Shown: piece after piece, positions 19,446 through 54,474 of the stretch
How the letters are laid out: each line of letters opens with the position of its first letter
How positions within the stretch are numbered: the stretch's first letter is position 1
Assembly (NCBI RefSeq): GCF_044647545.1
Contig: NZ_CP172818.1
Reading direction: 5' to 3' (one strand)
DNA from: Escherichia coli
GTDB taxonomy: Bacteria > Pseudomonadota > Gammaproteobacteria > Enterobacterales > Enterobacteriaceae
DNA length: 64,000 bases
Notes under the pieces: generated by a model
What the model was told of the DNA's origin: nothing
What the model saw: only the letters and a program-made list of their open reading frames with translations
Databases searched by the model: none
Translations under genes and position numbers: made by a program

Positions 19446-19539
19446 AGATACCTCAACCAGGATTTCACAAAATCGCGAGAAGTTTACCACAGAATCCCAT
19501 GATGTTTGAACCGGGCAGCAACACTGCCCGGTCGGTACA

Positions 19540-20829
19540 TTATTTGTCTGTTATATCCGCGTCTTCTGCGTCCAGCACCACTTCTTCAGGGCGCAGCATA
19601 CTAATCAGTTTGAAGATCAAACTTAAGCCGATACCGACGATGGTCGCCAGCGCCATACCTTTCAGCTCCGCCGCGCCAATGTTTACCTTCGCGCCACTGA
19701 CGCCGATGATCAAAATAACGGAAGTCAGGATCAGGTTCTGTGCTTTGTTGTAATCCACTTTCGATTCGATCAACACACGAATACCGGAAGCACCGATGAC
19801 ACCGTAAAGCAGCAGCGAAACGCCGCCCATCACCGGCAATGGAATCATCTGGATAGCAGCAGCCAGTTTACCGACGCAGGAAAGCAGGATAGCGAAAATC
19901 GCCGCCCCGCCGATAACCCAGGTACTGTAAACACGGGTGATCGCCATCACGCCAATGTTTTCTCCGTAAGTGGTGTTTGGCGTGGAGCCAAAGAAGCCGG
20001 AGATCACGGTCGACAAGCCGTTAGCAAACATCGAACGGTGCAGACCTGGATCGCGCAGCAGATCTTTTTTGACGATATTAGCCGTTACCACCAGGTGCCC
20101 TACGTGTTCGGCAATAACCACTAACGCCGCTGGCAGAATAGTCAGAATGGCAAACCACTCGAAGCGCGGCGTATAGAGGGTCGGCAGCGCAAACCAGTGA
20201 GCATTAATAATCGGCGTGGTATCGACAATTCCCATTGCGAAAGAGAGCGCGTAGCCCACCAGCACGCCAATTAAAATCGGGATAATTGCCAGGAAACCAC
20301 GAAACAGCACGGAACCTAAAACCGTGACTGCCAAGGTGGTAATGGAGATGATGATGGTTTTGGAGTCTGGCGTTTGCCCTTCAGCCGGGAGTAAACCTGC
20401 CATACCGGCAGCTACGCCCGCCAGCTCCAGACCGATGACGGCAACGATTGCGCCCATTGCCGCAGGTGGAAACAGCACGTCCAGCCAGCCGGTCCCCGCT
20501 TTCTTCACGATAAAAGAAACCAGGCAGAACAGCACGCCGCACATAATAAAGCCGCCCAGCGCGACTTCATACCCTAACGGCAACAGTAACAATACCGGTG
20601 AAATAAAGGCAAAGCTGGAACCAAGATAAGCCGGGATTTTCCCTTTACAGATGAAGAGATACAGCAGCGTTCCTATACCGTTAAATAACAGTACAGTCGC
20701 CGGGTTAATATGAAATAAGACGGGCACCAGGACGGTTGCACCAAACATGGCGAACAAATGTTGCAAACTAAGCGGGATTGTCTGTAAAAGTGGCGGTCTT
20801 TCACTCACCCCGATAGCACGGCGCGTCAT
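19540..20829 (-). CDS. uraA: Uracil:H+ symporter (NCS2 family)
   Basis: 429 aa from ATG at 20829 ([16 protein letters not shown]...); polytopic. Confidence 0.93.
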
Positions 20830-20875
20830 AGAATTATCCTCTGTATTATGTGTTATAGGCGCTTTACTCAAAAAA

Positions 20876-20908
20876 AAGCCGACTCTTAAAGTCGGCTTTA
20901 ATTATTTT
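20876..20908 (-). terminator. Intercistronic hairpin plus T-run (attenuator/terminator) between upp and uraA
   Basis: Minus strand: gccgact-ttaag-agtcggc followed by TTTTTTTT. Confidence 0.65.
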
Positions 20909-20914
20909 TATTCT

Positions 20915-21541
20915 TTATTTCGTACCAAAGATTTTGTCACCGGCATCGCCGAGGCCCGGAATAATGTATCCGTGCTCGTTCAGTCCCTGGTCAATCGATG
21001 CGGTATACAGTTCGACGTCCGGGTGCGCTTTTTCCAGCGCAGCGATACCTTCTGGCGCAGCTACCAGTACCAGAACTTTGATGCTGCTGCAGCCCGCTTT
21101 TTTCAGCAGGTCGATGGTCGCGATAACGGAACCACCGGTTGCCAGCATTGGGTCAACGATCAGCGCCATACGCTCATCGATGTTAGAAACCAGTTTCTGG
21201 AAGTACGGTACCGGCTCCAGCGTTTCTTCATTACGGTACATACCGACGACGCTGATACGCGCGCTCGGAACGTTTTCCAGCACACCGTCCATCATCCCCA
21301 GACCGGCACGTAGAATTGGCACAACGGTAATTTTCTTACCTTTGATCTGATCGATTTCTACCGGGCCGTTCCAGCCTTCGATAGTTACTTTTTCCGTTTC
21401 GAGGTCGGCGGTCGCTTCGTAAGTCAGCAGGCTACCCACTTCGGAAGCGAGTTCGCGAAAGCGCTTGGTGCTGATATCTTGCTCACGCATCAGTCCCAGC
21501 TTGTGTTTGACGAGTGGGTGTTTGACTTCCACGATCTTCAT
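20915..21541 (-). CDS. upp: Uracil phosphoribosyltransferase
   Basis: 208 aa from ATG at 21541 ([17 protein letters not shown]...). Confidence 0.94.
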
Positions 21542-21785
21542 ACTCTTTCTCCTTTGAGGGGCAGCCACAAAAAAATCGACGGATTATACCTCCTTTCTTC
21601 AAGGCGGCAATATTATTTTCGTTGACTTTAGTCAAAATGATAACGGTTTGAGATAAAGTTATTTTGTATTCAAATGGTTATGGAAGAAGATTATTCCATC
21701 CGAAAACGATCCTTTGCCCTGGTACAAGTATTCTTTTGCCGCGCGCCTGGGGAAAAGACGTGCAAAAAGGTTGTGTAAAGCAGTC

Positions 21786-54007: not shown

Positions 54008-54023
54008 GCTTTTTACAGGCAAT

Positions 54024-54051
54024 AAAAAACCGCCGAATTTGGCGGTTTTTT
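54024..54051. terminator. sseA terminator hairpin (copy 1 of a duplicated hairpin)
   Basis: aaaaaaccgcc-gaattt-ggcggtttttt; an about 80% identical copy recurs at 54295-54325. Confidence 0.7.
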
Positions 54052-54294
54052 ATTGCTGGTCTGTTCCCTCAATATACCAAACACCCACGACACAAACTCC
54101 TAACCTCTTTCAACAAAAAATTTCTTTATTATATCCACTGCGGCCCTTTCCGCCAACTTAAAAAATGTTCGGTAATAAAATAACCTGGCTTATTAGTCCG
54201 AATTCGGACAAATATAAACAAATCAGCTCAATATTAAAAATACTAATCGGTAAAAGATATTACTTAAACGTGTAAATTCACTTTCTTTAAACAA

Positions 54295-54325
54295 CAAAAA
54301 ACCGCCAAAATCAGGCGGTTTTTTG
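54295..54325. repeat. Second copy of the A-run/hairpin/T-run element (terminator-like)
   Basis: aaaaaaccgcc-aaaatcag-ggcggtttttt followed by gttgctggt, as after copy 1. Confidence 0.6.
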
Positions 54326-54474
54326 TTGCTGGTTTGGTTCGCGGCCTTTCCAGCAGATTGGCTTGTGTTGCATGAGCAACGCAGGTGCTTCACAGCAAAG
54401 CAATACTCGCCAGTAACTCTCTTTTTGTCAAGCGAAAGAGAGTAATCATTGTTTATTTAGCGTATTATCGACAC

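Follow-up and report, generated by a model that had tools for sequence, protein, structure and literature searches.

We analyzed a 64,000-nt stretch of Escherichia coli DNA (hereafter, the window) at the junction between upp and uraA, both of which lie on the minus strand. The gene for uracil phosphoribosyltransferase, upp (positions 20915–21541; stop codon TAA at 20917–20915), was recognized from the list of open reading frames and its translation, and matched the annotated E. coli upp and b2498 of strain MG1655 at 100%. Downstream of it, uraA, encoding the uracil:H+ symporter (19540–20829; ATG at 20829), was identified from its open reading frame and the annotation. Window positions are converted to MG1655 coordinates by adding 2599331, an offset obtained from the MG1655 annotation. 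Of 5426 complete E. coli genomes, 5425 matched a 401-nt query over the site, and the matched segment carries upp and uraA in their annotation.

The two genes are separated by an 85-nt spacer (20830–20914, minus strand), which reads on the coding strand, with the bounding stop and start codons, UAA-AGAAUAAAAAUAAUU-AAAGCCGACUU-UAA-GAGUCGGCUUU-UUUUU-GAGUAAAG...AGAGGAUAAUUCU-AUG. From upp toward uraA, all on the minus strand, it comprises an A-rich 15-nt segment between the upp stop codon and the hairpin base (AGAAUAAAAAUAAUU, 20900–20914), evident from the sequence itself; a terminator hairpin (AAAGCCGACUU-UAA-GAGUCGGCUUU, 20875–20899), supported by folding, a terminator scan, and conservation; an uninterrupted U8 tract (20870–20877; T8 on the coding strand and A8 on the plus strand) with a G next to it at 20869; and the 5′ leader of uraA in read-through RNAs (20830–20869), which carries the Shine-Dalgarno (SD) sequence AGAGGA at 20842–20837. 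The complete feature, that is, hairpin plus U8 plus G, spans 20869–20899. The first-pass annotation had described a stem-loop followed by an 8-nt T-run on the coding strand within the 85-nt upp-uraA spacer, all of which are indeed present in the sequence; the interval it assigned, 20876–20908, took in the hairpin and the upstream A-rich spacer but was shifted by about 6 nt and missed six of the eight T's. The hairpin and U8 of the window are identical to those of MG1655, and among 5372 matching E. coli records, 5343 carry the 45-nt element with an identity of 99% or more. Closer to uraA, position 20833 is the sole difference from MG1655 in the spacer between the SD sequence and AUG (GAUAAUUCU-AUG in the window and GAUAAUACU-AUG in MG1655).

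The hairpin consists of a 5′ arm (20899–20889), a loop (20888–20886), and a 3′ arm (20885–20875), with an invariant stem core in which GCCGAC (20896–20891) faces GUCGGC (20883–20878); the first three U's of the U8 tract are also able to pair with the AAA. The folding energy of a 39-nt segment was −15.2 kcal/mol, compared with −4.8 ± 1.9 kcal/mol for dinucleotide shuffles (z = −5.4; 0 of 200 shuffles equal), and that of the GC core of the hairpin by itself was −11.2 kcal/mol. Folding the whole spacer gave the same hairpin, which was also retained when 100 nt of upstream RNA were included, and no competing antiterminator or other alternative structure was found in the latter fold. The pattern GCCGAC-N5-8-GTCGGCTTTTT occurred once in the window against 0.00 expected, and a terminator scan of 18–24 kb returned the upp-uraA hairpin as the only terminator-like site. 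In an Rfam scan with E values up to 10, no family reached the gathering threshold; the sub-threshold matches (STnc240, STnc430, and Phe/Thr leaders) are RNAs ending in terminators and reflect a generic terminator shape. We also considered a bidirectional terminator, which was rejected, as the plus-strand tail AAUUAUUUUU is not conserved and no convergent gene is present.

The source of all transcripts meeting the terminator is the upp promoter, which, together with the initially transcribed GAUUUUUUUG, occupies 21568–21610 (minus strand) and was located by promoter scan, with a −35 element TTGCCG and a −10 element TATAAT at 21588–21583; the transcription start site (TSS) determined by SMRT-Cappable-seq corresponds to window position 21578. 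UTP-dependent reiterative transcription at the upp-uraA promoter is cited in a passage of PMC7039003. The T tract at 21568–21577 (minus strand) is the element reported to mediate this process, and of 5420 E. coli genomes, 438 carry the window's allele at these positions and 4738 the MG1655 allele.

Transcript ends were taken from SMRT-Cappable-seq data on full-length primary transcripts of MG1655 (Supplementary Data 1 and 2 of Yan et al. 2018, PMC6131387), a study whose main text does not mention upp or uraA. In rich medium, 214 reads started at TSS 2620909 (window 21578), the upp promoter. From this start site, 24 reads covering only b2498 (upp) ended at the transcription termination site (TTS) 2620201, which is window position 20870, the eighth U of the tract; 30 reads covering b2498|b2497 (upp and uraA) ended at TTS 2618838, and at least 139 of the 214 extended to the uraA end at that site (PMC6131387). 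The operon table of the same study lists b2498, b2498|b2497, and b2498|b2497|b2496, all from TSS 2620909, and its Supplementary Data 2 contains no unit starting at b2497 (uraA) under the two growth conditions. For rich medium, the remaining count columns give 4/154 for TTS 2620201 and 8/101 for TTS 2618838, and we read them as swapped relative to the header, because at least 139 reads reaching the uraA end must pass the hairpin and because the M9 row for TTS 2618838 has the opposite order (95 passing, 10 within 50 bp). On our reading of the columns, 24 reads stopped at the hairpin and 154 passed it in rich medium. Approximately 13–15% of reads thus ended at the hairpin, a figure that is a lower bound because selection of the library for sizes above 1 kb disfavors the 709-nt upp-only RNA. 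TTS 2620201 was called in rich medium and not in M9 (PMC6131387).

The first-pass annotation had also predicted that the hairpin partially terminates transcripts from the upp promoter and had named the distinction between upp-only and upp-uraA transcripts as the way to check this. The published long-read data bear this out, as both types of RNA are present, rather than the bicistronic form only, and the 24 reads ending at U8 and the 154 passing it share one TSS (PMC6131387). Stopped and read-through RNAs from a single start site (TSS 2620909), together with a downstream uraA that has no promoter of its own under the two growth conditions, are what is expected of a partial terminator, and the element likewise combines the attributes of an intrinsic terminator: a stable GC-rich stem-loop, a U tract immediately 3′ of it, and an in vivo 3′ end inside the U tract. 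The portions of the Adams 2021 and TERMITe Term-seq supplements that we consulted, which may list only other end classes, contained no upp or uraA entries. At the other end of uraA, a second hairpin (CCGGGCAG-UGUU-GCUGCCCGG, 19507–19531, minus strand) lies 9 nt past the stop codon of uraA, and its U tract (UUCAAAC) is poor; TTS 2618838 is window position 19507, at this hairpin, and most reads run on into hda, giving an upp-uraA-hda RNA.

We then compared the junction across Enterobacterales, using one genome per species (80 loci from seven or more families), to which Xenorhabdus and Providencia (Morganellaceae) were added. In 79 of the 80 loci uraA follows upp, and the sequence of the remaining locus is incomplete. 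The element A-GCCGAC-N6/7-GUCGGC-U8-G was found at 82 of 82 Enterobacterales upp-uraA junctions examined (the 80 loci plus Xenorhabdus and Providencia); all 80 loci carry [A/G]CCG[A/G]C-N6/7-G[U/C]CGG[C/U] followed by a T run, which is exactly eight long in 76 of the 80 species, with G as the next base in 77. Mean pairwise identity was 0.98 at the 12 core stem positions; within upp, it was 0.48 over 78 four-fold synonymous sites and 0.986 at codon position 2. All changes in the stem keep the pairing, with 0 unpaired cells over seven core pairs in 51 distinct sequences: five to six substitutions produce G·U pairs (A-U to G·U or G-C to G·U), and one compensatory double change, G-C to A-U, occurs in Erwinia persicina. 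Support from covariation is thin because the stem hardly varies.

The surroundings of this stem are far less constant. The loop varies among species in both sequence and length, and both flanks of the hairpin cannot be aligned among species, while the SD region CAGAGGAAAACACU is conserved. The hairpin lies 5–183 nt from the upp stop codon and 24–501 nt from the uraA start codon. In Escherichia, Citrobacter, and Enterobacter (window 20900–20917; e.g., loci L028 and L030), approximately 10 extra nt follow the upp stop codon, shifting the hairpin from about 8 to about 18 nt past it; these extra nucleotides resemble a tandem re-duplication of the upp end (ACGAAAUAA | AGAAUAA / UCGAAUAA CGAUAA) and add stop codons. 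Eight loci, from Yersinia (L057, L064, and L067), Pantoea (L062 and L069), the Erwinia group (L059 and L080), and L066, have inserts of 94–183 nt before the hairpin, several of which share sequence (...GCTCCGGTTTCT..GCGCTGTCCGTG...CTGCCTG...) and resemble a miniature repeat element. A small open reading frame ending beside the hairpin was considered for these inserts and rejected, given their stop codons in all frames and repeat-element appearance. In other species, inserts of up to 501 nt lie between the hairpin and uraA, and the hairpin is never interrupted.

Two further comparisons were made. As a control within the locus, the uraA-distal hairpin is kept only in Enterobacteriaceae, and unrelated hairpins occupy its place in other families. 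Of the four outgroup species (Vibrio harveyi, Aeromonas veronii, Pasteurella atlantica, and a Shewanella), none has uraA downstream of upp, and each upp gene ends in a terminator unrelated to those of the other three; the frozen hairpin is thus associated with the upp-uraA junction. As judged from these alignments, the stem and the length of U8 are under strong purifying selection across Enterobacterales, and this order-wide sequence invariance is the one new, mildly surprising point on the upp-uraA terminator.

Taken together, the element is very probably a canonical intrinsic (Rho-independent), leaky terminator inside the upp-uraA operon, of an ordinary and already recorded kind. Like other E. 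coli intrinsic terminators, including the leaky operon-internal ones of prs-dauA and dapA-bamC (PMC6131387), it has a GC-rich hairpin and falls within the usual U tract length of 7–9 nt, and with the leaky ones it shares a 3′ end in the U tract, a partial upstream A tract, and operon variants arising from one TSS. Unlike ordinary E. coli terminators, its stem and exact U8 are frozen across the order, whereas the adjacent uraA-distal hairpin turns over. We found no published functional dissection of this terminator, and full-text literature searches returned nothing on the site.

We propose the following course of events. RNA polymerase starting from the single upp promoter would transcribe upp and then a GC-cored hairpin of 8–11 bp with eight U's; some polymerases would release at the end of the U tract, leaving an upp-only mRNA of 709 nt whose 3′ hairpin is protective, while the remainder would read through to produce the upp-uraA mRNA, some going on into hda. 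Since the available data contain no uraA promoter, read-through of the hairpin would be the sole route to uraA mRNA, and the membrane transporter would therefore receive a lower mRNA dose than the soluble enzyme. With no other uraA promoter, over-termination and under-termination would both be costly, which fits strong purifying selection, and we suggest that the sequence is frozen because selection acts on the upp:uraA ratio.

The proximity of the upp stop codon to the stem may offer a reason for the high read-through of such a strong-looking terminator. The stop codon lies 5–19 nt before GCCGAC in 72 of the 80 species, that is, 5–13 nt in 32 species and 17–19 nt in 40 (including E. coli), and more than 90 nt before it in the other 8. 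In the lambda tR2 reporters of Li et al. 2016, termination efficiency was below 10% at 5 bp from the stop codon, 0.12–0.8 at 17–18 bp, and maximal beyond 30 bp (PMC4824070), so that the 5–19 nt of upp-uraA correspond to the range in which the efficiency of these ribosome-repressed terminators climbs from <0.1 to about 0.8. A ribosome finishing upp would halt 15 nt (E. coli) or 5–13 nt (many genera) before the stem and may hinder folding of the hairpin. From this geometry, we infer that the high read-through is at least partly due to the ribosome finishing upp. The system of Li et al. 2016 is an engineered one, whereas at upp-uraA the ribosome effect is deduced from geometry together with the high read-through. 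Ribosome proximity is not universal, because eight species have the 94–183 nt inserts between stop codon and hairpin.

A more specific version of this arrangement would be a UTP-sensitive, translation-coupled attenuator of the pyrE/pyrBI type, a reading that we consider possible but improbable and that would refine, not exclude, the leaky terminator. Under such control, low UTP would slow the polymerase on U8, and the ribosome finishing upp would catch up and block the hairpin, resulting in more uraA when pyrimidines are limiting. The architecture resembles that of rph-pyrE, with a translated upstream open reading frame, a stop codon a few nucleotides before the hairpin, and U8-G. The E. coli rph-pyrE attenuator reads UGA-UUUUUAA-GGCGACU-GAUG-AGUCGCC-U8-G, and upp-uraA likewise has a hairpin, U8, and G; the stop codon lies 7 nt before GGCGAC in pyrE and 5–13 nt before GCCGAC in 32 upp-uraA species, the stem core CGACU...AGUCG is common to both, and in both cases the downstream gene is pyrimidine-related. 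The pyrE attenuator hairpin is similar and conserved in Escherichia, Salmonella, Serratia, Pectobacterium, and Tatumella, and the pyrE hairpin of Serratia (GGCGACUGAGAAGUCGCC) and the uraA hairpin of Yersinia (GCCGACUGAGAAGUCGGC) are one flipped base pair apart. The pyrBI leader attenuator also ends in U8-G (GGGGC-U8-G). In our sequence set, pyrE (L088, 798–840), pyrBI (L090, 36–71, between pyrL and pyrB), and trpL (L097, 22964–23000) each have a hairpin, exactly U8, and then G, as at upp-uraA.

Several further, weak hints would fit such an attenuator. The U8 length kept in 76 of 80 species is one of them; a 414-kb sample of E. coli contained 63 sites with a hairpin plus T-run, of which only 7 had T ≥ 8, and the trp attenuator was among these 7. 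The TTS at the hairpin accounted for 24 of 214 reads in rich medium, compared with fewer than 10 of 260 in M9 if a 10-read threshold was applied (Fisher p about 0.002). In addition, after AZT treatment uraA was induced 5.7-fold and was 8.6-fold SspA-dependent, alongside pyrBI and pyrE, whose control maps to their attenuators; upp was absent from the top-25 list (PMC11228462).

Other observations weigh against it. Unlike pyrE, upp-uraA has no U-rich pause region upstream of the hairpin and has a gap of 15–18 nt in E. coli: the spacer AGAAUAAAAAUAAUU is A-rich and the 3′ end of upp is not U-rich, so that only the U8 tract itself could serve as a pause. A distance of 15–18 nt from the E. coli stop codon to the stem is at the edge of ribosome reach, and in eight species the distance exceeds 90 nt. 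Reads extending to the uraA end made up 142 of 260 in M9 and 139 of 214 in rich medium, so that their proportion did not rise in M9, and the documented pyrimidine control of the operon sits at the promoter, as reiterative transcription. In the literature that we searched, UTP-sensitive attenuation at upp-uraA has not been proposed. We also derived a covariance model from a set of 56 uraA hairpins. In a small search, the pyrE attenuators of E. coli, Salmonella, and Serratia ranked top; after 350 kb of MG1655 background was added, the terminators of fur (32 bits), aceF (29 bits), and trpL (27 bits) scored as high as pyrE (29 bits), and in only that much background. Since unrelated terminators score as high as pyrE, the likeness is no evidence of kinship, and homology to pyrE by covariance score was rejected. 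The same model also found 54017–54058 and 54289–54331 of the window at 12–21 bits; these hairpins resemble terminators, carry U as well as A tracts on both strands, and are possible bidirectional terminators. That the hairpin is the third pyrimidine-responsive, translation-coupled attenuator of Enterobacterales and a sibling of the pyrE attenuator is accordingly a tentative proposal, with the odds against it.

A further comparison is with Bacillus. The pyr operon of B. subtilis encodes a protein with UPRTase activity, followed by a terminator and a uracil permease of the UraA/PyrP family. The gene order around the PyrR-dependent attenuator of pyrR-pyrP is analogous to that of upp-uraA. However, a PyrR binding site was not found at upp-uraA, with no Rfam match even at E values up to 10, nor was there an alternative antiterminator fold, and Enterobacterales are not known to carry PyrR. 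A CCAGAGAG-like loop in Pantoea is lineage-specific and absent in E. coli.

Returning to the leaky terminator, the 3′ end at U8 could also be a product of processing, in which all RNA is made as upp-uraA(-hda) and nucleases generate an upp-only RNA trimmed to the hairpin. Long-read 3′ ends alone cannot separate termination from trimming, processing is acknowledged by the authors of PMC6131387 as the origin of some 3′ ends, and many reads from the upp TSS stop at scattered positions. Still, the 3′ end coincides with the final U of a perfect U8, 8 nt past the GC stem, which is the classic release site; trimming needs no U tract, but 76 of 80 species keep the tract at U8; and the site has every sequence attribute of an intrinsic terminator. 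We regard the processing explanation as very unlikely, and the 3′ end at U8 most plausibly arises from termination, not trimming.

A sequence-specific element, namely, the end of an Hfq- or ProQ-bound sRNA derived from the upp 3′UTR, or a site for an RNA-binding protein, would explain why the sequence is frozen beyond its structure, as the stem identity of 0.98 comes with little compensatory turnover. In the background sample, the Hfq sRNAs GcvB and CpxQ, the latter 3′UTR-derived, are among those with perfect U8 tails, and the sub-threshold Rfam matches are terminator-bearing enterobacterial sRNAs. Against this, no Rfam family matched at threshold and no ncRNA is annotated at the site in MG1655, the 5–18 nt from the stop codon to the hairpin cannot be aligned, and the loop varies in sequence and length. 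Synonymous conservation in the last 15–26 upp codons was 0.51–0.52, compared with about 0.59 in the rest of the gene; the upp 3′ end therefore shows no excess conservation and offers no candidate seed. Such an element is highly improbable. As for a complete terminator combined with a separate uraA promoter in the spacer or the upp end, the chance is close to negligible: the weak sigma-70-like match that overlaps the upp end (TTGGTA-16-AATAAT, 20928–20901; 9 of 12 positions) is not conserved, its −10-like sequence being missing in species with the hairpin 5–9 nt past the stop codon, promoter-like matches in the region were below the shuffle expectation (4 versus 5.2), and the long-read data contradict it, with at least 139 of 214 primary transcripts from the upp TSS spanning uraA and no uraA-only TSS in the tables.

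A leaky terminator between upp and uraA explains how one promoter gives much Upp enzyme and little UraA membrane transporter. The complete dependence of uraA mRNA on read-through is relevant to 5-fluorouracil uptake, to counter-selection tools based on upp and uraA, and to operon models, although the practical value is modest for a textbook-type leaky terminator in a well-studied operon. The upp-uraA hairpin also offers a clean natural system for studying how stop-codon distance and U-tract length tune read-through. If the hairpin is a pyrimidine-responsive attenuator, uraA would be under pyrimidine control at two points, the promoter and the intercistronic hairpin, which would account for a stem and a U8 length frozen throughout the order. 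Across Enterobacterales, a hairpin of 19–20 nt and exactly eight U's have stayed nearly unchanged while the spacer around them was rewritten, expanded by mobile repeats, and moved relative to both genes. On this comparative evidence, the pattern marks the strength or responsiveness of the terminator as a trait that appears to be under unusually tight selection, and makes the upp-uraA hairpin a good candidate for a finely tuned, possibly pyrimidine-responsive, intercistronic terminator.
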